A stretch of DNA of 64,000 nt, from contig CAWBZI010000001.1 of the NCBI GenBank assembly GCA_963793265.1, positions 1-64,000 on the forward strand, given 5' to 3'. This document shows positions 1 to 23,716 of this stretch, piece by piece (within the stretch, counting starts at the first letter, position 1; each line of letters begins with the position of its first letter). Under the pieces are notes generated by a model. That model ran no database searches. It was not told where the DNA came from and saw only the letters and a list, made by a program, of their open reading frames with translations. A program made the translations under genes and the position numbers. The DNA is from an uncultured cyanobacterium. Lineage in GTDB: Bacteria > Cyanobacteriota > Cyanobacteriia > Phormidesmidales > Phormidesmidaceae.

Positions 1-436
1 AGCAAATCAAGATCGCTAATTTGGCGAAGAGATATGTTTTGATAGGCGCTGATGGCTAAGAGGGGGCCTTTGAATGCGATCGCCTGTAAGCCCGAAGCTT
101 CAAAGCATTTAATCAAGCGGCACAGCTCCTTAGTCAGTATTAGATTATGGTACGTGTTCTGACGAAGAAAGCCTCGAGCTGAGTTAAAATATCGGCAGAT
201 AGGTTTTCAGCGCATATCTGCTTCAAGTTACAGCATACTATTGGCAAAACGCCGTGCTGCGCGGCAGTTTGGAAGAAGAATATCCAGTCGACAGGGGTAT
301 TAGCTAGCTCATGAATGCGATCACTTATCGCTTCAGAAGGATTGAGCCTGGCACAGCATAGCAAAAGCTGTAGCGCCGTCTGCGAATGACAGCTCATCTT
401 TGAAGATACCGTTTCTTGTATTAACTGAGCGACCAT
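1..436 (-). CDS. Nucleotidyltransferase family protein (NTP_transf_5-like) of the lasso cluster; frameshifted, runs off the window edge
   Basis: ORF 140-436 has DW..FFQTAAQHGVLP. Other frames below 140 read ILTKELCRLIKCFEASGLQAIAFKGP and AISAYQNISLRQISDLDL, i.e. the KG...R..xDxD motif. At least 2 frame breaks. Confidence 0.8.
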
Positions 437-674
437 TGTATTAAAGTATTATCAGAGTCGTTAGTCATAGCAAAGTGCGGATGCATTCGTACCTTGCTAG
501 TCACTTTGGCCGTTGTTTCATAACAGGTTTCAGCCGACGTTAGTGTCGTAACCCAGGTGACAGGAACTATAGTATTAACCTATTGCAAGCAGTATCAGAG
601 ACATCAGTACAAACAGTCCGAAATTTCATACGCTTCATTGCTAGTCAACAGTTAGAACAAGCACCTTCTTAAAA

Positions 675-2490
675 TCATCGATAGTTTCTCGCCTGTGTCT
701 CAAACAAGTTGGCATACAGCATTGCTTCTCAATCAGTTCATCGTGGCTACCGCCCTCTACAATTCGGCCTTGATCCATCACATAAATCCGATCTGCCATT
801 TTTACGGTCGATAGGCGATGCGTAATTAAAATGGCGGCCTGATCTTGAATAAGTTCTCTAAAGCGCTTAAACACCTCGTATTCTGCCTTTGGATCCATCG
901 CGCTCGTTGGCTCATCTAGCACAATCACCTGAGAGTCTCGCAAAAAGGCTCTAGCTAGCGCCACCTTTTGCCATTGCCCAATACTCAGCTCCTCACCGCC
1001 CTGGAATAGCTTGCCTAGCATCGTGTCGTATTCTTTCGGCAGGCTAGTAATAACATCGTGAGCCCCAGAGCGTTTTGCAGCCGCCATCACAGCACCATCT
1101 TCTGGCGGAAGCTGAATATTGCCTAGCCAAATATTGTCTTGAGCCGAAAGGTGATACTTTGCGTAATCTTGAAAAATAACGCTAATCTGCCGCCGCAAAA
1201 TCAACCACATCTCAGATCTTGCAGGTCAACCCCATCAACTGTGATACGACCCCCCGTTGGATCATAAAGGCGACACCAACAGCTTAATCAAAGTCGTCTT
1301 GCCAGAACCATTCTCTCCTACCAGGGCGATTGTCTCTCCCGGACGCACCGTTAGCGATATATCTGCTAAGGCCTGACGGGTCGTTCCTTCGTACTGAAAG
1401 TCAACATGATCAAACACAATGCCTTCTGTCATCGTCGCAGGCATTACTTTAGGGTGCAATGGCGCAGTGATGTTTGGCTTAAGATCTAAAAACTCGTAGA
1501 GATTCGTCAAAAAGAGATTATCTTCATGTAGCCCTGAAACGCCAGACATCAAAGCCGTCAGCGAATTTTGTCCTCTTTGTAGAGCTTGATGATACAGCAC
1601 CAAATCACCTAGCTTGAGTACACCTTGTAGCGTTTGGTAAAGAATAAAGCCGTATATGGCACCCACCAAAATTCCTGAGAGTATGCTGACGGACAGAAAG
1701 GACAGCGACCGGCGGGTCGTCAGCTTGAGCTTAGCCTGATAAAGGCTAGCCCGCAGGCGATCAAATCGCTGGCTGAATAGGTCGCCTAGCTCAAAAAGCC
1801 GAATTTCTTTTGCAAACTGCTCTCCGGTCATCAACCAGGAAAGATACATCGACTGCCGTTCTACAGGCGTCCAGGTGCGCTGCCATTGATAAAGCTCACG
1901 GATTATATTGCAGTCGCACCAGCACAGAAGGAATAGCCGCTACTATCAAAACGCCCAAAATTCCCCAGTGAAGGGTCAGCAGCAGGCCCACCATTGCGAT
2001 TAAAGAAATGCTGTTTTGCCCTACTTGGGCCAGCCTCGCCAAAATCTGGTTTGGGCGGTAGGTTGCTTCTTGCTGCGCTCGTTGAAGCGTATCGTGGTAG
2101 CGGGGATTTTGTAGTAAGCGCAAATCAATTTCAATAGACTTGGCATGTAAAATACTACGCATGTAGTCTGATACTTTCTGAGTTTGTGCAGTACTAACTA
2201 ATTCAGGAACAGCTCACCATCGTTATTAGCACTACAAACACCACTCCGACCAGCAGCGGTGAAATCTGCCGCATTATCTGCTGCGGCTCGGCAAGTGCCA
2301 AGCCTTCAGTTAATGCATCGACAAGCAGCTTTACTAAATAAATAGAGGCTAACGGTAGCAGCCCTTGAACAAACAAAAGGCTTAGCTTAGCGACAGTCCA
2401 AGCCGGACTACTCTGCCACACAAGCCGCAAGGCAGGTATTAATTTCTGAGTACCTACAACAAATTTATTTAACGTTCGGCCAAACTGCAT
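675..2490 (-). CDS. ABC exporter (fused TMD+NBD), split by several frameshifts
   Basis: Four ORF pieces join into one exporter: TM segments, Walker A GENGSGKTT, signature LSIGQWQKVALARA, Walker B VIVLDEPTS, H-loop ITHRLST. The likely true C-terminus LYANLFETQARNYR* ends at 675 in another frame. Confidence 0.85.
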
Positions 2491-2523
2491 AGTGGATTCA
2501 GTCGTGACTGCTCAGGAGTTTTT

Positions 2524-3374
2524 TCATTTGCATGATTGGTCACTTAACCGCACTAAATCCGGCAGTTCTTCTAACCCAGGTTTGCCAACAAAGCGATAGC
2601 AAGGAACTTGCTCAAGCAACTTTGTACATTGCTGAAAGTGCTTTTTAAGCATTTGCGGGCTGGACAGCGTTTTTGTTGCACGAGTATGACTTACCACATG
2701 GGTAAAAGCGTCTTTCGGATGCATAGATATAATGCGATGCTTATTGCCGCTATCTAGAATATATAGCTTCTTCAGCGGTAGCGACTTCGATTGAAAACCG
2801 CTCTTAAAGTTATAAGCTCTTTTATATGCGTGCGCAAACAGAGGAGACATATCATCGGGATTCTTTCCAAGTGCGACGGCAGATTCCGGTGCGAGTTTGC
2901 ATTCAGGGAAAGAAGGAATAACGTTTACGACACTACTATTTAATTGAAGCGTCATCACATCGTCTGTAAGGACAACCCTTTGCATGTAGCGCTGCTGCCA
3001 ACGTAGATTTCCCACAGCCCGAGCCACCTAGAAATCCTATGGCAGTATCTTGAATAGTGGCGCTGCTAGCGTGCAAAACAAAGTAGCCTAGCTGCCGTAG
3101 TATTATTGACAAACAGCCACCTAAAATATTAGGCGCAATCATTTCGCGAGTAACGCCGTCAAAGGGCTCAAAAGTTACAAACTTTCCATGAGAAACTAAG
3201 CAAGTCCCAAGGTGCTCAAATTTGCACAAAAGAACTTGGGGTGAGAGTGAAACTGACTCTCGGTTTATAGTACCAATGCGTACCACTACGTCAACTGCAG
3301 ACGTTCCAGCGAGGGCCCCAGGCAGCACGGATCTCAGAGTGAATATTTAATCCATAGGCATAGTAGTGATACAT
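2524..3374 (-). CDS. HPr-kinase-like lasso peptide kinase (PadeK-type), frameshifted
   Basis: ATG at 3374 gives MYHYYAYGLNIHSEI. Following frames carry LHAS, Walker A GGSGCGKSTLA and LTDD. Lies directly after the precursor. Confidence 0.8.
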
Positions 3375-3588
3375 AGAGTTCTAATAGTTTCGTTGTGCAG
3401 AGGGTTTCTACTGAATAGTTTTCTTCATAGGTAGACTAGAATGGTTTTCTAGCTCATCCTTGTTTTGTTACAATAATGAGCTAGAGATCTTTAATCTAAG
3501 TAGTTGTGCAAAATAAGCTACATACAATTCATCTAAATCCTAGAGCTTAGGGATTTACCAGCCGTATTTTGCAAATATTTTTGCACGG

Positions 3589-3622
3589 GGACTTATGCAT
3601 CCACAAGCCATGCTACAAGTCC
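3589..3622 (-). terminator. Stem-loop just 3' of the lasso precursor stop codon
   Basis: Minus-strand RNA GGACUUGUAGCAU pairs with AUGCAUAAGUCC (one G-U, one bulge). No U-tract. Confidence 0.5.
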
Positions 3623-3635
3623 ACTTCAATTGAGA

Positions 3636-3794
3636 TTAAATAGGATCAGCGTCCCGTGAACCCTGAAGTTGTGCTACCGGATTGCCTTGCGCATTAAAGA
3701 CAGTATCGTCATTACCATTCGTGAAGTTTGCTTGCGTTATCTGTTCTACATTCCCGTAGGAGGTAAGAACAGGTTGGATGTAGCTTTTTTTCAT
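3636..3794 (-). CDS. Lasso peptide precursor (52 aa), absent from the ORF track
   Basis: Hand translation: MKKSYIQPVLTSYGNVEQITQ-ANFTNGNDDTVFNAQGNPVAQLQGSRDADPI. Leader motif YxxPxLxxxGxxxxxT, Thr at -2, core Ala1 with Asp8/Asp9. SD-like AAAGGAAA upstream. Confidence 0.92.
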   Translation of the reverse strand: MKKSYIQPVLTSYGNVEQITQANFTNGNDDTVFNAQGNPVAQLQGSRDADPI

Positions 3795-3908
3795 GATGAT
3801 GTTTCCTTTGAAGTGTTAAAGCATTACGTGTTCAATTAAGATGCACCTCCTTTGGACTTACAAACCAACTTATGAAGTAGTAGCTTCAGGCTGGTATGCC
3901 AGGATCAC

Positions 3909-5942
3909 CTAATCTATGTCAAACTTACCCTGCATACGCTGAAACCAAAGGGCTATGGCTGTAGAACTCCAAACCGTCAAGCTGTCTTTTTTTGCTATGT
4001 TCACTTTCGGCGTACTATGCTTTTGATATGATTTTAATCGCTGCCATGCCTCGCGCCATTCGTCAATATTAATATATGAGCTTGCTAGCTGTCTTTCATG
4101 GCTGAGCACTTTTTCAAAAGAACGACTATCTATATTCAACAAACCGTTAAGGAAATTAGGGGACATACTGGTTTTATCTCCTCTCTTCAGAATTGCCTCT
4201 GGCAGTATTCCTGCCAAACCTCGTCTCATAACAACCCGACCCAACCCCTGATTGAATTTTTGTTCAGATGGAATAGATAAGCAGAACTCGACAAGTCTTC
4301 TATCTAGAAAGGGATGCCGAGCTTCAAGACCAAAGGCCATCGCGTAACGATCTGTAGATTCTAGGTTTAGAGATAATAGTCCGCTTGTTAGAGTCTGCCA
4401 ATGGCTCTGTCTCACAGACATTCGCAAGCTTCTTTCTCTCCCGTACTCTCTCATTCTCTCATGCAAGTTAACCTTCTCTATAAGCCAGCTATTGACCAGC
4501 TCTGAAGAGAAACTTTCTTTGGTTCTATCTCTTTTGAAAATCTCATTTAGAATTCTTCTTGCAGCGGGTCTAATCCCGTGCTTTATGTATAGCTTGCGAC
4601 GCGAATAGTTAAACTGATTGTGGATACCGCTAGCAGTTTTTACGAAGTCTAAAATTTTTCCTGTCTTAGCTAGGTGTCTTAGATGACCTATAGCGTAGTA
4701 GTTGATAATAGTATCAGGAGGTACGTCGTAGTTTTTCCCGGTAACTTCTGCGGCATCAGCAAACTCATTCCATCTTTGTTCTATCGCTAGCTCATTTAAT
4801 CGCTCTACACCATGACACACTACTGTATCACCATCAAACCCGTCGAATATGACCCGCACTCCTGCCCTATAGGTTGCCTCGTTGAGCCTCCACGGTAAAT
4901 AATGAGACGGCCCTGTGACTGGCTCATCCTCGTATTGCCACATCTGTTCCACATCAGTCAGTGGCCCAAAATTGTCTACATAAATATAATGAGGCGTATA
5001 TTTGCCTTGTTTCAGTACCTCGTTGATATAGACCCTTTCATCACACTCTCTCACTGTGTCGAAAACGTTTGAAAACGTATGAAGTGTTTCTCTAGTTGTC
5101 GCATCTAAAAGTTTTCGAGCCATACAGGTAACTGAAGATGAGTCTAGCCCACCGCTCAAATGGCTACCTATTGGAAATGCGCTGCGCAACCGGCAGCGTA
5201 CGGCCTCTGTAAACATCTCTCTGAATGACTCTGCGTAAGCTTCATCAGACTCTAAAATAAGCTCGTAGTTCGGATCCAACGCCCAATATATTTCGCTACG
5301 AATACCTAATGTATTTATCCACATTCTCGTAGCGGGAGGAAGCCGAACGATCTCTTGGAATGTAGTAATTTCCTGATCCTCTAACATCGGCACCAAGTAA
5401 TCAGCAATCCGAGTTTCGTTAAGCCGACACGGCACCCAGTCGAGGCACAACAGCCCTTTGATCTCAGAAGCTACTGAAAATGAATGCTCAGAAGAATAAT
5501 GATAGAAAAAAGGCTTCACCCCAAAGTGATCTCTAGCACAAAATAGCTGCTGCTTCTCGCCATCCCAAATCAAGAAGGAAAAATCGCCTAGCAAGTGCTC
5601 AGGGCAATCACTATTCCATTTCTCATAAGCCGCCAAAATAAACTCACTATCAGCAATTTTCTCCAGCGGTCGGTCAGGTAAATCCAACACTTCAGCTAGC
5701 TCATCGCGGTTATCAATTCGCGCATCTGCCGTAATCGCCAACGACCCTTTCACTAAAGGTAGATTCTCATGCAAAGACTCCGGCGTCGTCCACAACATCC
5801 GATGCCCCAGCCCTATCGGCCCATCGCACCACACATCTACACCATCGGGCCCACGATGCGCCAGCACATCCACCATCTGCTGCAAATCTTCAGCCTTTAC
5901 TGGTTGCTCATCAAGACGATAGATACCTGCGATACCGCTCAT
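3909..5942 (-). CDS. Lasso peptide isopeptide bond-forming cyclase (AsnB-like)
   Basis: AsnB-like motifs HRGPD, ARDHFGVKPF, LSGGLDSSSV, EARHPFLD. N-terminus is MSG rather than MCG, so the glutaminase Cys is absent. Overlaps the B2 stop (ATGA). Confidence 0.92.
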   Translation of the reverse strand: MSGIAGIYRLDEQPVKAEDLQQMVDVLAHRGPDGVDVWCDGPIGLGHRMLWTTPESLHENLPLVKGSLAITADARIDNRDELAEVLDLPDRPLEKIADSEFILAAYEKWNSDCPEHLLGDFSFLIWDGEKQQLFCARDHFGVKPFFYHYSSEHSFSVASEIKGLLCLDWVPCRLNETRIADYLVPMLEDQEITTFQEIVRLPPATRMWINTLGIRSEIYWALDPNYELILESDEAYAESFREMFTEAVRCRLRSAFPIGSHLSGGLDSSSVTCMARKLLDATTRETLHTFSNVFDTVRECDERVYINEVLKQGKYTPHYIYVDNFGPLTDVEQMWQYEDEPVTGPSHYLPWRLNEATYRAGVRVIFDGFDGDTVVCHGVERLNELAIEQRWNEFADAAEVTGKNYDVPPDTIINYYAIGHLRHLAKTGKILDFVKTASGIHNQFNYSRRKLYIKHGIRPAARRILNEIFKRDRTKESFSSELVNSWLIEKVNLHERMREYGRERSLRMSVRQSHWQTLTSGLLSLNLESTDRYAMAFGLEARHPFLDRRLVEFCLSIPSEQKFNQGLGRVVMRRGLAGILPEAILKRGDKTSMSPNFLNGLLNIDSRSFEKVLSHERQLASSYINIDEWREAWQRLKSYQKHSTPKVNIAKKDSLTVWSSTAIALWFQRMQGKFDID

Positions 5943-6382
5943 TTTCTTACACCTGCAACAGCAAGCGGTTTAAACCGATCCAAATCACTCAGCCCACCCA
6001 TCACAACGCAGCCCTCATACTCAATCCAGGCGTGCGCTTCAAGCTCCTGTTTATCACCTTTAGCCACACCAATATGTAGCTGATGAACATAGCCATATCG
6101 ATTCAACAGAATTTGCGTGGTAAAAGCCTTTACCAAACACATAGCGCCCCCAGGCGTATGCCGACTAGCAAAGGTGACAGCCCATCGAATGAACTGAATA
6201 GAGACAGTTTGCCTAGCGCTAGTGCAAACCCAAATAGAGGAAACTTTATTGAGAAGCTGCCTCACAAAGCCAAAAGGAAACAGCCACAAAGCTAAACGAA
6301 TGCAGTTGAGCAACAGACACGCATAGAGCAATACCCGTCGTTCTTGCCAAGAAAAAGCAAGCAATTTGTTAAGTCGCCTCAT
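5939..6382 (-). CDS. Lasso peptide biosynthesis B2 leader peptidase (transglutaminase-like)
   Basis: CLVKA...LHIGV...AHAWIE Cys/His/Glu pattern; lies between the RRE and the cyclase. Confidence 0.9.
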   Translation of the reverse strand: MRRLNKLLAFSWQERRVLLYACLLLNCIRLALWLFPFGFVRQLLNKVSSIWVCTSARQTVSIQFIRWAVTFASRHTPGGAMCLVKAFTTQILLNRYGYVHQLHIGVAKGDKQELEAHAWIEYEGCVVMGGLSDLDRFKPLAVAGVRK

Positions 6383-6679
6383 CGTTTACCTCAACCAGGC
6401 GAGCCGCCTTCAGCTCCATAATTATTTTTGTCAGGTCTTGCTTACACTCCTCTGAGGGCACGTCATATTCTTCTAGCAAAATGCCGTGCAGCTCATCAAA
6501 CCTTCGAGACTGCTGCACCAGCTCCCAAATCCGAGCGCCTACCTCATTGAGGCCGTAGTAAACGCCCGAAGCCATATTCAAAATAACGGCCTCCCCCCCA
6601 GCTCAGACGAAATCTGATCTTGAGTCGGTGAAATGGTAGCGCTCGCAGAAATTTCTAATAATTTGGAAGACATATGCAT
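6369..6679 (-). CDS. Lasso B1 / PqqD-family RiPP recognition element; one frameshift in a G7 run
   Basis: YYGLNEVGARIWEL...EEYDV motif. The upstream frame MHMSSKLLEISASATISPTQDQISSELGG joins it as ELGGEAVILN if one G is added at 6593-6599. Confidence 0.88.
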
Positions 6680-6876
6680 TTTGAACCGTAGATTTCACAA
6701 GCCGTATGTGGTACGACTGTTCGATTACACTTACATTTACTCAAACAAATCTTGATATCTGGCAAACTGTCCGCACTTTCACGCAGGCTTTAAGCTCGCC
6801 TACAAAGCCTTAACAGTAGCGTGCGTGGTTTGTTCTGTAAGGCATTGGCAATAAGGCACACGCGCCAGCACGCAAG

Positions 6877-7784
6877 CTATCTCGAAGCCGCCTGCTTACT
6901 AATTACAGCCATCGCCACATAGTAATAAACCGTGAACAGCAGTCCAACGAAAATTTGAGCCCCCCAGGAACCATGCCAAAAGTCGAACCACCACTCACCC
7001 CAGTAGGCCGCAGCCATCACCATCAGCACAATTCTAGGCACATTAAACGCTAGGCCCAATCATAATACCTGTGCCCATCAGGCCCAAAATCTGCCCCCGA
7101 CTCCGCCGAAAAAAAACGCCCAGCAGCAGCCCCGTAATCGCCATCGCCACCGCCAAATTAAAGCCATTACACCGCCAGGCCACCTCCACCGCCCCAGACG
7201 GCATCGTAATAAATCGCCCCCCTTCCACCGCCGCAGGCTGACCCACCCACTGCAACACCTTCACACTCACCGCCGCCATCGCATTCTCCAGCCAAAACGG
7301 TGGCACCAAAAACCGCCACACCCCCTGAGCAATTACCCCTGGGCGCGTGTAAACCGTCAGCGGCATCAAAAAAGCCGTCAGCGGATAGCACGCAAAAAAC
7401 GTAGCACCCCAGGAGCGTAAGGGCAATGCCGACTAGCACAAAAAGCCAGACCAAAGCCTGCGACCAGAGTTCGGCTCTAAAAAAGGGGTATAGCGCGATC
7501 GCTCCCATCACCAACAAATGACCCACATACCGATCCGCCTCAGGCGCGACCACCCGGCTCAACTGCCGCCGACTTCGCCAAAGCGGAGCCATCCCCAGCA
7601 AAGCCGCGCTCGAAATTAGCACCAAGCCGGTCGAGCCACTGACCGAGCGCACCACCAAATCTTGCAGCCACAGCGGAAAATACAGCAGCCCCACTACCAG
7701 GCCCGCCAAAACAATTCGACCGTGACCGGTCGAGAGCAAACTGCGAACTGGCTTAACGACAGGTCCAACTACATTGCTCATCAA
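6877..7784 (-). CDS. Exosortase/archaeosortase family transpeptidase (probably cyanoexosortase C type), frameshifted into 3 ORFs
   Basis: Multi-TM protein with VEVAWRCNG (catalytic Cys), FNVPRI (Arg) and FWHG (His); close to a PTPA-CTERM gene. Confidence 0.82.
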
Positions 7785-7790
7785 TATCTC

Positions 7791-8429
7791 CTAGCTCGCA
7801 ATGCGACGAAGATTTGCCACACCCAGCCGACCCAGCGAAATTAAACCAAGCCCAACGACAAACAAATTCCCCACACCCGCCAAGGCTGATTTGGTAATGT
7901 CTGTTCTAGTGTCAGCCTTCAGTTGCTCCGCTTCCAGGCTAATCTGCTGCGCGGCCTGCTCTAGCTGCTCAAGCGTGACGTTAGCCGGTAGCTCATCACT
8001 GGCTCTACCCGCCTCAATCTGAAGCCGAAGCTGCTCTGTTTGCGAGTTAATATTGCTCAGCGTTTCGCCCTGCAAAATTAAGCTATCGCGAATCATGAGC
8101 GTGCAAGAGAGCACAAAAGCCACGCCAATTCCCATAGCCAGCAGAGACAGAGGTCGATTGATGCGGCGATTGTTGGCCTGGCTATAGAGCAATAGCGCTA
8201 CGCCAAATAGCAAAATTACGCTGCGATCGCCCGTCTGCTGCAAAACGCTAATCCGCCACGGCAAATCAAACAGATTCAACGGCACCGCCAGGGCCAGCAC
8301 ATCCACAGCAAACCCAGCCAAACAAACCACACCCACCACCAAACAGATCTGCCTGGAAATAGAAGTGGCTCTTTGCGACACGGGCCTGCGATTGTCGTAC
8401 TGAGCTGGCGGTCTTTGAAGACTGGTCAT
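7791..8429 (-). CDS. HpsJ-like membrane protein
   Basis: TM helices, WRISVLQQTGDRSVILLFG motif, coiled-coil loop, C-terminal helix. Likely start MTSLQR at 8429. Confidence 0.65.
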   Translation of the reverse strand: MTSLQRPPAQYDNRRPVSQRATSISRQICLVVGVVCLAGFAVDVLALAVPLNLFDLPWRISVLQQTGDRSVILLFGVALLLYSQANNRRINRPLSLLAMGIGVAFVLSCTLMIRDSLILQGETLSNINSQTEQLRLQIEAGRASDELPANVTLEQLEQAAQQISLEAEQLKADTRTDITKSALAGVGNLFVVGLGLISLGRLGVANLRRIAS

Positions 8430-8456
8430 AAGAGTGCAATAGGTAAGGATAGGGTA

Positions 8457-8478
8457 GGGGCATAGCACGCTACGCCCC
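8457..8478. repeat. REP-like short palindrome
   Basis: GGGGCATAGC-AC-GCTACGCCCC; related copies at 22691 and 50584. Confidence 0.6.
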
Positions 8479-8520
8479 CGGTGCAACATTATTTAAGTTA
8501 CAAAAGCAAATCAGTTAGTC

Positions 8521-9186
8521 TTACGCTTCCGTAGAGTCTTGATCGGCCAAGTTACGCTTACGCACAGCCGCCATGTCCCATGCCAATCAGACCCGGCAAA
8601 AGCGCAGGCGTAGGGATTGGCTCAGCCGAGATTTCACCTGCGAACGCAGTCACGCCTGTGAAACGGTTTGTGCTAAAAGTTGCTGATAACAGCACCTGTC
8701 CCGACAACAGATCCCCTGCCGTCTGTGAAAACACCTCTCAGGCCACCACCATTAAGCCCAAAAGCGCCAGTGGGAAGACTCATAGCCTGGGTAAAGCCAT
8801 CAAACTCAGTTAGATCAAATCTCAGGGTTGTGCCAGCCGCCTGAATGCCGCTAATGAAGCTGGTGATCGGTGCTGTTGGGAAAGTTATTGACTGCTGTCA
8901 GCGAAGAGAGGTCGCTAATTCTAGCGGTACCAGAATTTGAAAAAGACCCTGTACCGGCACCAACCGTCAGATCACCCGCTGTTCCAGCGTCGGCGTTTGA
9001 ATTTGTTCTTAGAAAATCGAACTGATAGTTGTTGGGTGCTGTTGTAGGTGCAGATCGAAAAATTCTGACTCTTCCAGCAAAGTTGAAGTCGCCGTTGAGC
9101 GTGAGAGCATGGGCAGGGGCGGAAACTGTCGTTGCGATCGCCACCGCACCAGCCGTCACAAAAAGCTTATTTACATTGTTGAACAT
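8521..9186 (-). CDS. PTPA-CTERM sorting-domain secreted protein; at least 3 frameshifts
   Basis: Signal peptide ending APAHA, Ser/Thr/Gly/Asn-rich body. C-terminus IPTPALLPGLIGMG (8576-8617) then MAAVRKRNLADQDSTEA* in shifted frames. Confidence 0.82.
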
Positions 9187-9499
9187 TTAAAGGAACTACC
9201 GTAATAATGAGTTGTAGAGATAAATATCAGATACGAAAGCCCGTTTGCAGCCAACTGCTATCGTCCAAGTTTTGCAGCAGACTCACAATTGTGATTTAAT
9301 AACTCTCGTATCGGTAGTGCCCTAGCCATGAGCAAACATAAATCGTCTGCCAGGCCCCTTTTTGTCTGTACTAAAGTACTCTACACCCGCATTCTAATAG
9401 TTAAATCTATCTTTCTTGATGTTTGCATCTTCTTAATCAAGTAATCTACAAATATCAAAAGACTGTAAAGCCTTACTTATTTGTCCTCGTCCAAACCAG

Positions 9500-11681
9500 C
9501 TACTTCTCTCTAGCGACTACCCCCAGCACATTCACATCTGCCAGCCTTAGCTGCTCCATCGCCCGCTCCAGCAGCGGCTGTTTCACCCGCCCCGACTGCG
9601 CCACCAGCAGCAGCCCGTCCACATGGTTCGCTACCAAATAAGCATCCGACTGCCCCAATAATGGTGGCGTATCAAAAATAATCAAATCAAACACCGGCTT
9701 CATCTTCTCTACCAGCTTTCGCATCCCCCCAGAGCCCAGCACTCGCGAAGGCTCAATCGGATGCGAACCCGAACACATCACATAAATCGTCGGATCTTCT
9801 GAAAACTTCTGAATCACCGCCGGATTCACCGCCCCAGAAAACAAATTTGTCAGCCCCTTCTCATTCGGCAGCTCCAAATACTGATGAATTTGAGGATTTC
9901 TTAAGTCCGCATCTACCAGCAGCACCCGCTGCCCCATCGCCGCCGCCGCCTCCGCCAGGTAAATCGCCACCGTCGATTTGCCCTCACCCGCCGTCGAAGA
10001 GCTAACCGCAAGCGATCGCACCCGCTTCCCTGAATTCGGCTGTCGCAGATTGGTATACAGCAATCGAAAAGCCTCCGAAAACGGATCGCTATCGTAAGCC
10101 TTACTCACCACCTTGCCATTGCGCGGAACCGATCCATTTTGAGCTGCTCTTACCCTGGTGCCCTCTTTAATGTTAGAGCCCACATACTGCAAAGACTCCG
10201 TAAATCTCTCCTGAACATCGCCCCCATTAAGAATCTGATTAGTTGGAATCCTGGCCAAAATTGGAAGCTGCGTTGACCGCCGAATCGCCTCATCGCCATA
10301 GATAACGCCCCCCGACTTGTCGAGTAAAAGCGCTGCCCCTGTACCTAGCATTAGGCCCAGCATCGCGCCTAGCAGCAGGTTCTGCGGCAGGCTCTCAGGC
10401 TGAGGCCGAGGCGTCGTTGGCGGCGTCACAATCTCCCAGGGCACTTCCCGCTGGGCCGCATCAATTTGCAGCGCCTCCCGCTTCGATAAAAACTGGTTCA
10501 AATTGTTAGTCGCAATCTCTAGCTCTCGGGTAATGTCTGAATAATCTCTCGAAATACCTGACAAGTCGTCTACATTCGTATTCAACTCCTGTAGGGTTTG
10601 CCCTAGCGATCGGTCACGCTCCTCTAATTCCTGGATTTGGCTCAACACCTCTCGCTGAGACTGCACCGCCTGCTCCTCCAACAGCCTCAGCAAATTATCT
10701 CGCTGCTCTTGCAGCACCTCCATATCGGGGCTACTGTCTAAATATATTGTTGAAGCTTCAGCCATTTGCGCATCCAGCGCCAGCAAACTATCCAATAGCG
10801 ACTGATAGCGAGGATTTTGATTGAGCAAAGAAGAGCTGGCCTGCTCCTGCGGCTGACCCGCCTGCTGCTGAAGCTCAGCATAGAGCTGACGCTGTTCTCT
10901 AAGCTGCGACTGCACCGCTAGCTGCTCATTAGAAAACGAACTCACCTGAGAGGCTAGCTGAGAACCCCGAGACTCCGGATCAATAAGATTGTTGTCCGAG
11001 CGCAGCGTTTGCATCTGGCCCTGTAGCGTATTTACCTTATCGCGCAAATCTGGGAGCTTTTGCTCAACAAAATCAATTCCCCGGCGAATATCTGCCTGCT
11101 TAGAAGCCAAACTGTAGTCCAAATAAGCTTCTGACAGCAGATCTAGCGCAATCTTCACCGTCTGAGGATCGAGATCTTGAAAAGACGCCTGAATAATCTG
11201 TGAGTCATCACCCGCGCTACCTACTGACAGTCGCCCAGCAAGCTGATCGTAACAAGGATCGTAGTTCGTCTGCTCAACTGGCGCGGCTACTCCCGACTGG
11301 CAAAAAGTCGGGTCTTGCTGGCGCATTCCATCTACAACTGGCTGTAGAATATTGGGGCTCTTGAGTAGCTTCAGCAAGTCGCCAGTAACCACCTCATCAG
11401 GCTGTATAGTCGTCAGCGTATCCGGCACGTCTGAAATCACCTCAGTTTCAGTACTTTGCGCCTGCACCAAAATCTCAAATAGGCCGCTATAAGTCGGCGT
11501 ATCAGTTAGCACCTTTGCGCCCCGCTAGCGTTGTAGTCGCCGCCGTCATCCCCGCAATCAGCCACCACTTTCTTTGCAGCGTCTTTAAGAGCGCACCAAA
11601 ATTAAGACCGCCTTCTTCTTCCTCCATTGGCCCTACCGGCGGCATGGCTATCGGCATGGTTAAAGCTGTGTCGGTTTTCAT
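9500..11681 (-). CDS. wzc: Wzc/GumC polysaccharide co-polymerase with tyrosine-kinase domain; frameshift near 11515
   Basis: N-terminus MKTDT...LKTLQRKWWLIAG from 11681, coiled coil, TM, FSEAFRLLYTNL, Walker A GEGKST, LVDADLR, FDTPP. Confidence 0.88.
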
Positions 11682-11691
11682 AGAATGCTAC

Positions 11692-13179
11692 CTAGTCAAA
11701 AATCCCAAAGAGTCTTAAAGGGAAAAATACGCTTTGAATCACCCGGCCTACGGGGCCTAAAATTGCGCCCACTCTGTCGTCAATGTTGGCGATCGCAGAA
11801 GGATTCACCACCACCACATCGTTATTCCGCAACAGCGGATTATTCTCCTCATCAATCCCTTGAGCAAAGTCCACATCAATCACCCGGCGACTCACCGAAC
11901 CATTCGGATTCAACCGAATCAGCTCAGCCTCTAGCTCGTTCGCCCGGTTATTAAATCCACCTGCCGCCAAAATAGCCTGACTTAAAGACGTATTCGGCGG
12001 CAGCTCCAATCTTCCGGTACGTTCTGTTTCGCCCACCACATTTACCTGAATAGAATTTGGCGAAAAGCTCGCTTCGGCGATCGCACTCACCTGCTCAGGA
12101 TCCACCTCAGTCGCCGCTGGCACAAACACCGTATCCCCTGCCTGCAAAATCGCATCCTGCTCCAAATTGCCCACCTCAATCAGCCGCGCCAAATCCACCT
12201 CAAAGAGCTGAGAAGTCCCCCCTCGCGTCGCCCGCACCACCTGCACACTCCGAATATCCGCCTCCGGCTTAATGCCGCCCGCCACCTGCAGCGCTCTTGT
12301 CACGGTCGTTGGGCTATCACCACCGCTACCGCTTGAGGCCCCCGGCACACCAGCATCACCCGTACGCGCCTGCCCCCCTTGCAACGTATAGGAGCCAGGC
12401 CGATACACCTCACCAATCACCGCAATATTAATCGGCTGCGTCACGCTCCCAGCAAAATTCGCCTCCGAAAGCAGCGCCATCTCCGCCAGCGGCACCGTCG
12501 TTGTCGGCACAAAAATAGAGTCTCCATCTCGCAGCGTCACGTCCTGACGCTGATCGCCCGTTTGCACCAGCGCCCACAGATCCACCTGAAACTGCTCATA
12601 GCTACCGTCCGCTTTTTGCCTTTGCACCTGCACCTGGCGCACGTCTGCGGCCTGCGTCGTTCCGCCCGCATCTCGCAATAGCTGAGTCAGTCGGGGCAGC
12701 GACGAGCCCTCACGGCTGAGCGCATAAGACCCTGGACGATTCACCTCACCCGCAATCCCGATTTGCAGCGGTCGGCTGCTAATCAGGCCCACCGTGAGGA
12801 TCGGTCGTCTGAGAAAATTGCCATAGCGATCGCTCATCAAAGCCGTCGCCTCAGCAATCGTCAGCCCGCCCACGTTCACACTGCCCACCAAGGGCAAATT
12901 CACCGTACCGCCCACGAGTACCTGGCTCTCGCCGCTGTACTGCGGCACCCGAAAAATGTCTACGCGCAGTACGTCTCCGGCCCCTAGCGTGTAGGGCGTT
13001 TCGGCCAAAGGCGCTGGGGGCGCTGTCGGGATTGGCGCTGTCGGAACGGGTGCGACAAGTACTGGTAGACTAGGCTGGGCGACGACAGCAGCAGGGCTCA
13101 TAGCCAAGCCTAAAAACGCAGACAGTAGCGGTAGCTGAAACAATAGACGCGATCGCATAGGCACCTCCAATCTACTCAT
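11692..13179 (-). CDS. wza: Wza-like polysaccharide export protein with SLBB domains
   Basis: YTLGAGDVLRV, LPLVGSV, repeated GEV.RPGSY and L..GD.IFVP motifs. Confidence 0.9.
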   Translation of the reverse strand: MSRLEVPMRSRLLFQLPLLSAFLGLAMSPAAVVAQPSLPVLVAPVPTAPIPTAPPAPLAETPYTLGAGDVLRVDIFRVPQYSGESQVLVGGTVNLPLVGSVNVGGLTIAEATALMSDRYGNFLRRPILTVGLISSRPLQIGIAGEVNRPGSYALSREGSSLPRLTQLLRDAGGTTQAADVRQVQVQRQKADGSYEQFQVDLWALVQTGDQRQDVTLRDGDSIFVPTTTVPLAEMALLSEANFAGSVTQPINIAVIGEVYRPGSYTLQGGQARTGDAGVPGASSGSGGDSPTTVTRALQVAGGIKPEADIRSVQVVRATRGGTSQLFEVDLARLIEVGNLEQDAILQAGDTVFVPAATEVDPEQVSAIAEASFSPNSIQVNVVGETERTGRLELPPNTSLSQAILAAGGFNNRANELEAELIRLNPNGSVSRRVIDVDFAQGIDEENNPLLRNNDVVVVNPSAIANIDDRVGAILGPVGRVIQSVFFPLRLFGIFD

Positions 13180-20864: not shown

Positions 20865-21572
20865 TTAAGGAGTGCTCAGGAGCTGAGCAAGCTTGCCCCA
20901 TTCCTGCACTGTCCAAGTAAGGGTGCGATCGCCTACCCTCTGAACCACCTGATTGCGCGTGGTATCTACCGTCAAATTTTCTGGTAGCCACAGGCGATCG
21001 CCTTCTTGCTCAGGCCGCGTAGAAAGCTGAATGTCCCAAGGCTGAGCGCCCTGCTGAACAGAACCCATAGAGATTTCGCAAAATGGTTTCTGCAAGTCAG
21101 ACTCGTGCGAAAGCTTTTGCGTGCAGATAAACCGATCACCGCACACCACGAGCCACCCGCACCAGCCAGATTCATCAGAAAGCGTCATCGCCGCCGTCGC
21201 CCCGGTTGCGACCCGCTGCCATTCTTCTTTGTAGGCATCATCAGGCCCCATCTCAACTAAGATGTCGCCTTCCCAATACAGCCTGCCTACGTCTGAAGCG
21301 TCGCCGTCGGGCCGATAGTCCATCGTGTGCTCCCATTCGCAAAGGTCGTCTTTTAAGCGAGTAACGCCTGCAAACCCATCCATCTGATCGCGCCCCATCG
21401 CAAGCCGCTCAGCCGGAACCCGAATATCACCAAAGCAACAGCTCGTTTGCAGCCAAAAAACCTGCGTTGTTGTATCTCGCTTGCCATTCTCTTCAATCGA
21501 AAGCCTCCGCCATACGCCCCTTAGCCAATCGGGCACTTTCTCAGCAAACAAACTATCAGTAGGGCTTGTCAA
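20865..21572 (-). CDS. Hypothetical Trp-rich protein (resembles the Hri1-like family)
   Basis: WRRLSI..VFWLQT..DIR..GFAG..EMG..YKEEWQR. Start overlaps the aquaporin stop. Confidence 0.5.
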   Translation of the reverse strand: MTSPTDSLFAEKVPDWLRGVWRRLSIEENGKRDTTTQVFWLQTSCCFGDIRVPAERLAMGRDQMDGFAGVTRLKDDLCEWEHTMDYRPDGDASDVGRLYWEGDILVEMGPDDAYKEEWQRVATGATAAMTLSDESGWCGWLVVCGDRFICTQKLSHESDLQKPFCEISMGSVQQGAQPWDIQLSTRPEQEGDRLWLPENLTVDTTRNQVVQRVGDRTLTWTVQEWGKLAQLLSTP

Positions 21573-22270
21573 TTCACCTTCCCCAAATCAGAAAAATTAT
21601 TAGAAAGCTGTCGGTACGCCAGCATCGCAAGCTGCGCCCCCAAAATGGGAGCTACCCAGTATAGCCATTGATACTGCCACAAACCGCTCACCAGCGCAGG
21701 CGCAAAAGACCGAGCCGGGTTCATACTCGCTCCGGTAATCGGCCCCATGCAAGCGGCCTCTAGCCCCACCGTCAGCCCAATCGCGGCCCCCGCAAATCCA
21801 ATCGGCCCGCGCCGATCTAGCCCCGTGCCAAAGATCACCAGCATCAGAAAAAAAGTCAGCACCGTTTCTAAGACAAAAGCCTGTAGCCAGTTGCCTGCCA
21901 GTGGCCGTGTCGCACCCATATCAGCCACCAGGCCAAAAGCAAGCCACAGCAGCAGCGAGGCCAAAACGCCGCCAGATACCTGCGCCAAGATATAAGAGAT
22001 CACCTTGCTTTTGCTAAAAAAACCACTGCTCCAAAAAGCCAGCGTTACTGCCGGGTTAAAGTGAGCATCGCTGATATGCCCTAGTGCATAAATCATCGCT
22101 GCAACCACCGCGCCAAACACAAAGCTCACGCCTAAATGCGTCAGCGCACCCTCGCTAATCGCATTGACCATCACCGCGCCTGTTCCGGCAAACACAATTG
22201 CAAACGTGCCAATAAGTTCCGCAAACTCTGGGGCGTAAGACCGAGCGCGCGATCGCCTTTTTGCCTGCAT
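21569..22270 (-). CDS. MIP/aquaporin channel, probably arsenite-conducting
   Basis: Two NPA motifs (HFNPAVT, SMNPARS); divergent from arsR. Confidence 0.9.
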   Translation of the reverse strand: MQAKRRSRARSYAPEFAELIGTFAIVFAGTGAVMVNAISEGALTHLGVSFVFGAVVAAMIYALGHISDAHFNPAVTLAFWSSGFFSKSKVISYILAQVSGGVLASLLLWLAFGLVADMGATRPLAGNWLQAFVLETVLTFFLMLVIFGTGLDRRGPIGFAGAAIGLTVGLEAACMGPITGASMNPARSFAPALVSGLWQYQWLYWVAPILGAQLAMLAYRQLSNNFSDLGKVN

Positions 22271-22726: not shown

Positions 22727-23716
22727 CTAGCAACAGCCACCGCCGTCGTAATACCAGGTGGAATCGGTGACGGTGATATCATCGAACTTATCAAGGTTTC
22801 GAGCCGTCTTGTCACAGATTGCCAGGGGAATGCCGGGCATTAGAATGTGACCTGCATTGTCGTCAAAGTACTCTTGCTCGCCTGCGTACACGGCCATCTT
22901 GCCCGTAAAAATGCACGCGCCATCCTCAGCGATTGGCACCTTAAACGAAACGCAGTCTAGGCTCTCTAGCATGAGGTGCTCGTTGAGCTGATAGTGCTTC
23001 GCATTTAGCAGCCGGTAAGGACGACGCGCGCGCACTTCTACTTGGCCAAAGCCCGCATCGATAATGCGCTGCGTGTAGTCCTCATAGGTCAGCGCGCCCG
23101 AGAGGCACATCGCGCGCAGGCGGTCGTCATTTCTGAGATGAATTGGAATTTCGCGGGTCGTAATCGGATCGCTCATCACCAGGCGGCCTTCGGGCTTGAG
23201 CACCCGGTAAGCCTCAGCCAAAGCTTTGGCTAAATCTTCAGGCTCAAAAATATTGAAAAGGCAGTTTTGAGCTACCACGTCTACCGAATTATCAGGCATT
23301 GGAATGCTGAAGGCATCGCCAGCGCGAACGCTGACAAAGCTCGGATCAAACCAATCGTTTTGCTCAGCTGCTAGCACTAAATTTCGCTCAGCCGCTTCTC
23401 GCATAGAATCCACCGGATCAACTGCGATGATGGCACCGGGGCGGCGAGAAAAGTAGGCAAACTGCAAGGCTTCTAAGCCGCCACCCACGCCGACATAGAG
23501 CACCGTTGGGTCGCCAGTCAGCTCGGCAGGATGAACGGTCGTGCCGCAGCCGTAGTTCATTTCCTGCATTTCGACAGGAATCGTTAGTCCAGGCATTTGC
23601 AAAGGCGTGCTTTGTACGCAGCACAGCCCCACATCAGGGGTTTCAGCAACTTCTGTATAAAAATCGGCAACCGCTTCTAAATAACTCAAAATATTTTCAC
23701 GGAGAAATTGGGCCAT
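22727..23716 (-). CDS. arsM: Arsenite S-adenosylmethionine methyltransferase (cyanobacterial type)
   Basis: GLCCVQ, MNYGCG, YVGVGGG, QNCLFN, AMCLSGA, C-terminal GGGCC. Confidence 0.88.
   Translation of the reverse strand: MAQFLRENILSYLEAVADFYTEVAETPDVGLCCVQSTPLQMPGLTIPVEMQEMNYGCGTTVHPAELTGDPTVLYVGVGGGLEALQFAYFSRRPGAIIAVDPVDSMREAAERNLVLAAEQNDWFDPSFVSVRAGDAFSIPMPDNSVDVVAQNCLFNIFEPEDLAKALAEAYRVLKPEGRLVMSDPITTREIPIHLRNDDRLRAMCLSGALTYEDYTQRIIDAGFGQVEVRARRPYRLLNAKHYQLNEHLMLESLDCVSFKVPIAEDGACIFTGKMAVYAGEQEYFDDNAGHILMPGIPLAICDKTARNLDKFDDITVTDSTWYYDGGGCC

Follow-up and report, generated by a model that had tools for sequence, protein, structure and literature searches.

The lasso peptide cluster and its surroundings

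The window, meaning the whole stretch of 64,000 nucleotides that was analyzed, opens contig C1, one of 7 contigs in the assembly. At its very beginning lies a lasso peptide gene cluster, arranged on the minus strand in the order B1-B2-C-A-kinase-ABC exporter-nucleotidyltransferase, with the last gene (N) being cut by the contig start. The following features were recognized:

6369..6673, minus strand: RRE protein B1 (PqqD family), with one frameshift at a 7-G run (6599-6593); PF05402, 63.8 bits
5939..6382, minus strand: leader peptidase B2, 147 aa, intact, with Cys82 and the AHAW His motif; NF033537, 105.4 bits (cut-off 33)
3909..5942, minus strand: lasso cyclase C, 677 aa, intact, with both ATP-binding motifs; NF033535, 934.7 bits (cut-off 525)
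3802..3809, minus strand: Shine-Dalgarno-like AAAGGAAA, 7 nt before the ATG of gene A
3636..3794, minus strand: lasso precursor gene A, 52 aa; translation, NF033528, sole match in the genome
3794-3732, minus strand: leader of gene A, 21 aa; YxxPxL..G and Thr(-2)
3731-3639, minus strand: core of gene A, 31 aa; Ala1, Asp8, Asp9, no Cys
3705..3707, minus strand: core Asp9, predicted macrolactam acceptor; invariant alignment column, 46/49 G-S-x-D cores
3651..3662, minus strand: G-S-x-D motif (core Gly24-Ser25-Arg26-Asp27), with Ser25, the sole core Ser, as predicted kinase target
2524..3374, minus strand: HprK-like peptide kinase K, with frameshifts near 3335 and 2973; His, Walker A and Asp-Asp motifs
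675..2490, minus strand: ABC exporter D, with three frameshifts (near 2205, 1901 and 720); short-read contigs have indels at all three
1..436, minus strand: 5' part of an NTP_transf_5 nucleotidyltransferase N (PsmN-like), with a frameshift near 170; PF14907

The original prediction assumed that B1, B2 and the cyclase would all need repair before expression. This holds for B1, which is frameshifted, but B2 and the cyclase are intact and carry their catalytic motifs, the Cys and His patterns of B2 both being present in 36/36 homologues. B1 was matched in two frames (tblastn) to intact homologues of 99-102 aa, and its fragment scores over the cut-off of PF05402 and under those of the lasso-specific B1 models. 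Kinase K is 52% identical to an intact homologue, and the K homologues match HprK-related models only below their cut-offs. N reaches 50 bits with PF14907 at 3-179 (cut-off 31.2); the rest of this gene, truncated at the contig start, did not turn up in other parts of the assembly.

Compared with intact homologues, frameshifts occur in B1, the kinase, the ABC gene and N, and the cluster is patchily spread (9/45 genomes of the genus). Both observations would suit a decaying pseudogene set that yields no product in its host, but we regard such decay as extremely improbable. Short-read contigs, mostly near-identical to the window, differ from it by indels at 718, 1900, 2206-2210 and 2972, which close four breaks of the kinase and ABC genes when frames are counted against intact homologues. 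These contigs come from two runs of one study and are mostly single with a depth under 5. In the three runs compared, neither A, most of C, nor the frameshift sites of B1, N and the 5' end of the kinase gene were spanned, and on B1 only an unrelated 38-base piece was matched. In addition, the damage lies at the contig end (the first 10 kb of C1 have the lowest long-ORF cover among 190 bins), the breaks consist of indels, the matched pieces being free of in-frame stops, and C, B2 and A are intact. Given the four closed breaks and the position at the contig end, the frameshifts in B1, the kinase and the ABC gene are likely assembly errors.

The region directly upstream (6880-13179, minus strand) carries a cyanoexosortase C gene in three frameshifted pieces, an HpsJ-like protein C gene, Wzc- and Wza-like genes and a PTPA-CTERM protein gene (NF033465 over cut-off), and is followed on the plus strand by WecG and GT2 glycosyltransferases. 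The lasso cluster abuts this exopolysaccharide/exosortase locus both here and in the nearest kin, the synteny exosortase-B1-B2-C-A-K-D-N being common to the window and loci L066 and L067. Bacillota lasso clusters adjoining exopolysaccharide loci are also described in the accessible text of one report (PMC13381572). A general link between the two kinds of loci was rejected, since among the 40 wide loci similarity to the window's genes revealed exosortase in 3, Wzc in 2 and WecG in 2. The GC content of the lasso cluster (1-6700) is 0.43-0.47 vs. 0.51-0.54 in the flank (6880-64000); the AT-richer cluster and its patchy spread within the genus fit lateral gain or repeated loss. A lasso cyclase was found in 54/401 genomes of the class and in 36/173 of the family, and the best titled cyclase match (64%) belongs to Leptothoe sp. 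(L101). This match and the cyanoexosortase C and HpsJ-like neighbors mark the host as a cyanobacterium. Further along the window, a methyltransferase-like ORF (22727-23716, minus) and an aquaporin-like ORF (21569-22270, minus) may resemble arsenic-handling genes.

The precursor gene and its cyanobacterial relatives

Gene A, which had been proposed as a lasso precursor missing from the ORF track, is read on the minus strand from an ATG at 3794 to a TAA at 3636, while the plus-strand reading of 3636-3794 is interrupted by a stop. The exact 52 residues were recovered by translation, and the peptide scores 38.2 bits against the NCBIfam model NF033528 (lasso_cyano), with a cut-off of 33. In a search of the whole 5.7-Mb genome it was the sole match to this model (37.4 bits), and 0/14 control genomes gave a match over the cut-off; it was likewise the single match of a genome-wide scan with the leader-motif pattern. 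It starts 115 bases past the stop of the adjoining cyclase, the only NF033535 match of the genome. The score above the cut-off and the uniqueness of the match place the ORF beyond chance. Gene A is a genuine lasso precursor, added to a family already named by curated models.

The leader was predicted to carry YxxPxL..G and to be cleaved after Thr(-2)-Gln(-1). The motif is indeed present, and Pro8, Gly14 and Thr20 of the leader are invariant in the A1 alignment of 41 long precursors, i.e., 41 of the 45 first-set cores of at least 29 aa, with L011, L050, L053 and L059 omitted as atypical. The profile of this alignment also matches lasso leaders in the PDB (5v1u_E, E 1.4e-4). The SD-like element upstream of the ORF was borne out, whereas no promoter- or terminator-like sites were found in 3300-4000. 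A stronger Shine-Dalgarno-like element, AAAGGAGGT, lies at 3847-3855 (minus), past the cyclase stop and ahead of the precursor. The only frame behind it is a TTG frame of 3 codons, and the element may be left over from a second precursor or from a longer start.

The core contains Ser25 as its sole Ser, two Thr and no Cys, which agrees with the class II assignment made earlier, and ends with Ile31. The frame is backed by family motifs through Asp27. Shifting the frame by one base within the last codons would lengthen the core to 34 residues and raise its score against a profile of 49 motif precursors by at most 1.9 bits; the as-is reading ranks 9 among 187 scored readings, all better ones altering the end only. 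There is thus a small chance that the exact C-terminal end (the last 3-4 codons; 31 vs. 34 residues) is wrong. Protein searches with the precursor returned only itself, in line with the earlier remark that the core was not recognized as a characterized peptide; this exact core is without precedent in the protein collection, and the best-matching one (L031) shares 12 identical positions. No relative was found by a precursor pattern scan of metagenomes, the precursor alignment being too variable for such scans, or by a cyclase pattern scan of genomes.

Conservation of the ORF beside homologous cyclases, proposed as a check in the original prediction, was observed. Precursors were mined beside cyclases using one leader pattern, which other leader forms escape. 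The first set (loci L001-L079) yielded 65 distinct precursors, gene A included, and among later-fetched cyclase loci 85 of 101 carried a leader-pattern precursor. From this second set (L080-L180), 27 loci with non-cyanobacterial record titles were set aside (22 precursors, median 28.5), leaving 67 new cyanobacterial cores. The pooled set comprises 131 cyanobacterial cores, with gene A excluded and near-copies from kin counted in. The median core length was 32 aa in the first set, 37 in the second and 35 in the pool; cores of at least 31 aa numbered 43 and 46 in the two sets, and 83 of the pooled cores exceed 31. The seven cores adjoining the closest cyclases (61-65% identity) measure 36-42 aa. 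Ala1 is the commonest first residue in the first set (22/65) and occurs in 10 cores of the second and 31 of the pool. Asp9 was present in 47, 51 and 97 cores, respectively.

These figures do not sustain the earlier view of an unusual length, and Ala1 is common, being also known from pseudomycoidin and paeninodin (described in the accessible text of PMC6993621). Within its lineage the gene A core has an ordinary or even short length, and it is long only against characterized peptides: the 47 solved lasso structures covered in the available part of PMC12214591 measure 14-33 aa and come from three phyla, none of them cyanobacterial.

Two further groups stood out among the mined precursors. Nine loci (L055, L056, L096, L097, L099, L100, L134, L141 and L167) form a separate group whose cores start with Gln, Val or Asn and are rich in Lys and Thr at the N-terminus. 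By the Thr(-2) rule, their first conserved Asp falls at position 9-11, and this lineage may use another cleavage site or ring size. At L103, L107, L111, L116, L124, L125, L040 and L011, cores of 43-58 aa carry two Cys in the extension past S-x-D, often with 2-3 paralogous precursors per cluster. A tail disulfide is predicted for them (class IV-like), and they exceed every solved lasso peptide cited in the papers compared.

Ring closure and the conserved G-S-x-D motif

The ring had been predicted to close on either Asp8 or Asp9, and the relatives favor the latter. The Asp9 column is invariant in the A1 alignment; without that selection, Asp9 is found in 37/44 long cores of the first set and in 44/55 later ones. 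It is present in 46 of the 49 G-S-x-D cores, only one of which has an acid at 8 alone, and in all seven cores beside the closest cyclases, none of which has an acid at 7 or 8. Pseudomycoidin is described with an NMR-supported Ala1-Asp9 ring and Val11 and Phe12 (PMC6993621, text available in part), the same register as Asp9-Thr10-Val11-Phe12 of gene A. An 8-residue ring would be compatible with the Asp8 of gene A and with relatives, as Asp8 rings dominate some short-core ones and an acid at 8 only is seen in 4/44 and 5/55 long cores. It nevertheless appears very unlikely, since the hydrophobic register (Asp, any, Val, Phe) lines up on Asp9, the residue kept in 46/49 motif cores and 7/7 nearest relatives. 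Because of this conservation, the ring of gene A is very probably the predicted Ala1-Asp9.

The earlier reading of the core overlooked a conserved G-S-x-D motif and its link with the kinase. The motif (after position 12) was found in 28/44 long cores of the first set, in which it was picked by inspection, compared with a mean of 1.6 and a maximum of 6 in 1000 shuffles; in the later-fetched loci it was found in 21/55 long cores (shuffle mean 1.5, maximum 7). In the pool, in which kin are not independent, 49/99 long cores carry the strict motif, 50/99 are without it, and 66/99 match a looser pattern. Short cyanobacterial cores have none (0/20 and 0/12) and frequently end with Ser (12/20 and 8/12), while a terminal Ser is seen in 2/49 G-S-x-D cores. 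The Ser25 column is at least 90% conserved in the A1 alignment. Cores of this subtype range from 31 to 58 aa, gene A being among the shortest at 31, and have 5-23 residues beyond the Ser and an Asp9-to-Ser distance of 14-28 (16 in gene A).

A full-length-type kinase ORF is present in 38/40 wide loci, the two misses both being at contig ends, and the kinases of the long-core lineage retain the His, Walker A and Asp-Asp motifs; N was found in 20/40 loci and in 10/20 motif loci. PadeK-type kinases phosphorylate the C-terminal Ser of the linear precursor and are described as specific, while PsmN puts a hexose on the phosphorylated Ser (available text of PMC8498205, PMC6993621 and PMC11912497). Internal targets are also on record: BsfK acts on ring Ser3 (PMC10368454) and LppK on Ser3 of a 45-aa linear core, without accepting Thr for Ser (PMC13381572), both as far as the accessible text goes. 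Both of these sites lie near the N-terminus, unlike the loop/tail Ser of gene A. Since the kinase is kept, the core lacks a C-terminal Ser and internal-Ser kinases are known in the family, Ser25 is probably the phosphorylation target of the neighboring kinase, by analogy with these enzymes. In a kinase tree, the 19 motif-linked kinases were all found together to one side of a 100/99 branch; co-evolution of kinase and motif was nevertheless rejected as independent evidence, as the loci divide in nearly the same way in the cyclase tree. Because both trees split alike, they show cluster lineage only.

It is possible, though in our view rather doubtful, that G-S-x-D is kept only for the passage of small residues through the ring or for recognition by the cyclase, with the kinase acting elsewhere, on Thr or a partner protein, or leaving this peptide unmodified. 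Gly and Ser are small and stand right after the predicted hairpin, and, given the single split in the kinase and cyclase trees, kinase retention could be lineage inertia. On the other hand, threading would not account for the retention of Ser, instead of Ala or Gly, in at least 90% of the sequences, the catalytic motifs of the kinase are retained in the long-core lineage, and LppK did not take Thr in place of Ser (PMC13381572, as described in the part available). Alternatively, the residues past Ser25 might be a follower removed by a host protease, leaving a 25-mer with a C-terminal phospho-Ser like that of pseudomycoidin. The Asp9-to-Ser25 distance is nearly that of the terminal Ser of pseudomycoidin, the extension varies from 5 to 23 residues, and known PadeK-type kinases favor a terminal Ser (accessible text of PMC8498205). 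Such trimming seems unlikely, as no extra peptidase is seen in the cluster here, no peptidase at a shared position was found in eight relatives partly scanned (49/104 ORFs), and the paired Cys of some extensions suggest that these are retained in the product.

In lasso biosynthesis, the precursor is bound by the RRE, cleaved and adenylated, in that order. Our preferred reading, to which we assign a probability of about 0.6, is that gene A is the precursor gene of a pseudomycoidin-type cluster. Its product is predicted to lose the leader after Gln(-1) and to form an Ala1-Asp9 ring, with phosphorylation likely at Ser25. By analogy with characterized systems, B1 would bind the YxxPxL leader, kinase K would modify the linear precursor, B2 would remove the 21-aa leader, C would adenylate Asp9 and close a 9-residue macrolactam round the chain, and D would export the product. 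The kinase target in this scheme would be Ser25 of G-S-x-D, and N may put a hexose on its phosphate, as PsmN does. The calculated monoisotopic mass of the cyclized core is 3227.49 Da, which would rise to 3307.45 with a phosphate and to 3469.51 with a hexose added to it.

The 22-23 residue tail of the original prediction is better divided, the 22 residues after the ring being loop plus tail: residues 10-23 would fold back as a hairpin loop, which would leave the small Gly24-Ser25 at the ring and a short tail past it. A low-confidence AlphaFold model on the alignment placed strands at core 8-12 and 18-23, with a pLDDT of 65, a pTM of 0.23 and the isopeptide bond outside the model. The modified Ser25, together with Arg26, may help to hold the thread. 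Unmodified pseudomycoidin is described as unthreaded after purification, and its phospho-hexose was proposed as a lock (PMC6993621, text available in part); a phospho/hexose lock at Ser25 of the same kind is speculative. Concerning function, neither paeninodin nor pseudomycoidin was antibacterial in the assays covered by the accessible text of PMC6993621, and an antibiotic role was therefore left unassumed; there is a weak indication that the product is an exported, modified peptide rather than an antibiotic.

Comparison with known lasso systems

Genome-level cyanobacterial lasso clusters have been reported (PMC9967302; PMC9332814), including a predicted core of 36 residues (PMC9332814), while the lasso products covered in PMC9576775 belong to other phyla, all three papers being available in part. 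No isolated or characterized cyanobacterial lasso peptide was found in the literature searched, mostly the main texts of freely available papers; the same literature gave no mention of the G-S-x-D site, although the RODEO/LassoPred supplementary tables may list both this motif and long cores from cyanobacteria.

The closest match is the family described by NF033528. Its members resemble gene A in leader, Asp9 and long core, gene A passes the cut-off, and the order B1-B2-C-A-kinase-ABC is common to this cluster and most of the 40 loci. The model spans the first 33-35 residues, and G-S-x-D falls outside it. As a single gene, gene A is of little importance, as curated models recognize it already. 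The testable novelty is the internal Ser25 phosphorylation in a long-core subtype, length and Ala1 being ordinary, and gene A, as a short, Cys-free, single-Ser member, offers a clean test substrate for kinase site and threading. More broadly, and only tentatively, we propose a widespread cyanobacterial subfamily (31-58 aa, Asp9 ring) in which the kinase and nucleotidyltransferase would place phosphate, and perhaps a sugar, on the internal loop/tail Ser of G-S-x-D rather than at the C-terminus; the modification would act as a lock at the ring, with a variable extension beyond. If true, it would represent a third site class for lasso kinases, contain lassos longer than any solved so far, and provide a direct test of the "modification as lock" idea that arose from pseudomycoidin.

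The pseudomycoidin (psm) cluster of Bacillus pseudomycoides, as described in the accessible text of PMC6993621, comprises the genes found here (C, A, K, B1, B2, N and D), N being a truncated PsmN-like candidate in the window, and arranges them differently, as C-A-K-B1-B2-N-D. Its Ser lies about 15 residues after Asp9 (deduced from His23 followed by the terminal Ser) vs. 16 in gene A, but it is C-terminal, whereas six residues follow Ser25. Paeninodin shares an N-terminal Ala, an inner Asp ring, an HprK-like kinase (PadeK) and a linear precursor as substrate, yet its target is a C-terminal Ser and its cluster lacks the N gene (PMC8498205 and PMC6993621, both in part). Furthermore, paeninodin-like leaders are described as WxxP (available text of PMC13381572), while that of gene A is YxxP. 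The gene A cluster likely works like the paeninodin/pseudomycoidin group, but we do not file it there because its core ends with Ile31 and its sole Ser is Ser25.

Bsf (BsfK; PMC10368454) and LPP (LppK; PMC13381572) combine, in the portions available, a YxxP leader with an internal Ser phosphorylated by an HprK-like kinase, as predicted here. They differ in that Ser3, in the ring or at the N-terminus, is targeted rather than a loop/tail Ser; in addition, the Bsf leader has Ile(-2) instead of Thr(-2), and LPP is described without a cyclase.

Finally, the geometry predicted here resembles that of achromonodin-1, a class II peptide of 30 aa with a 20-aa loop and a short tail (bioRxiv 10.1101/2023.06.21.545946, in part), but the latter is proteobacterial and has a Gly1-Glu8 ring and Lys/Tyr locks (same source and available text of PMC13352647). 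Pandonodin, also proteobacterial, measures 33 aa, with an 18-aa tail and a tail disulfide (PMC13352647, same text); the two are the record lengths among characterized lasso peptides. A threaded Cys-free 31-mer, as gene A would encode, would exceed achromonodin-1 by one residue, and Cys-free cores of at least 31 aa were found in 54 of the 131 relatives.
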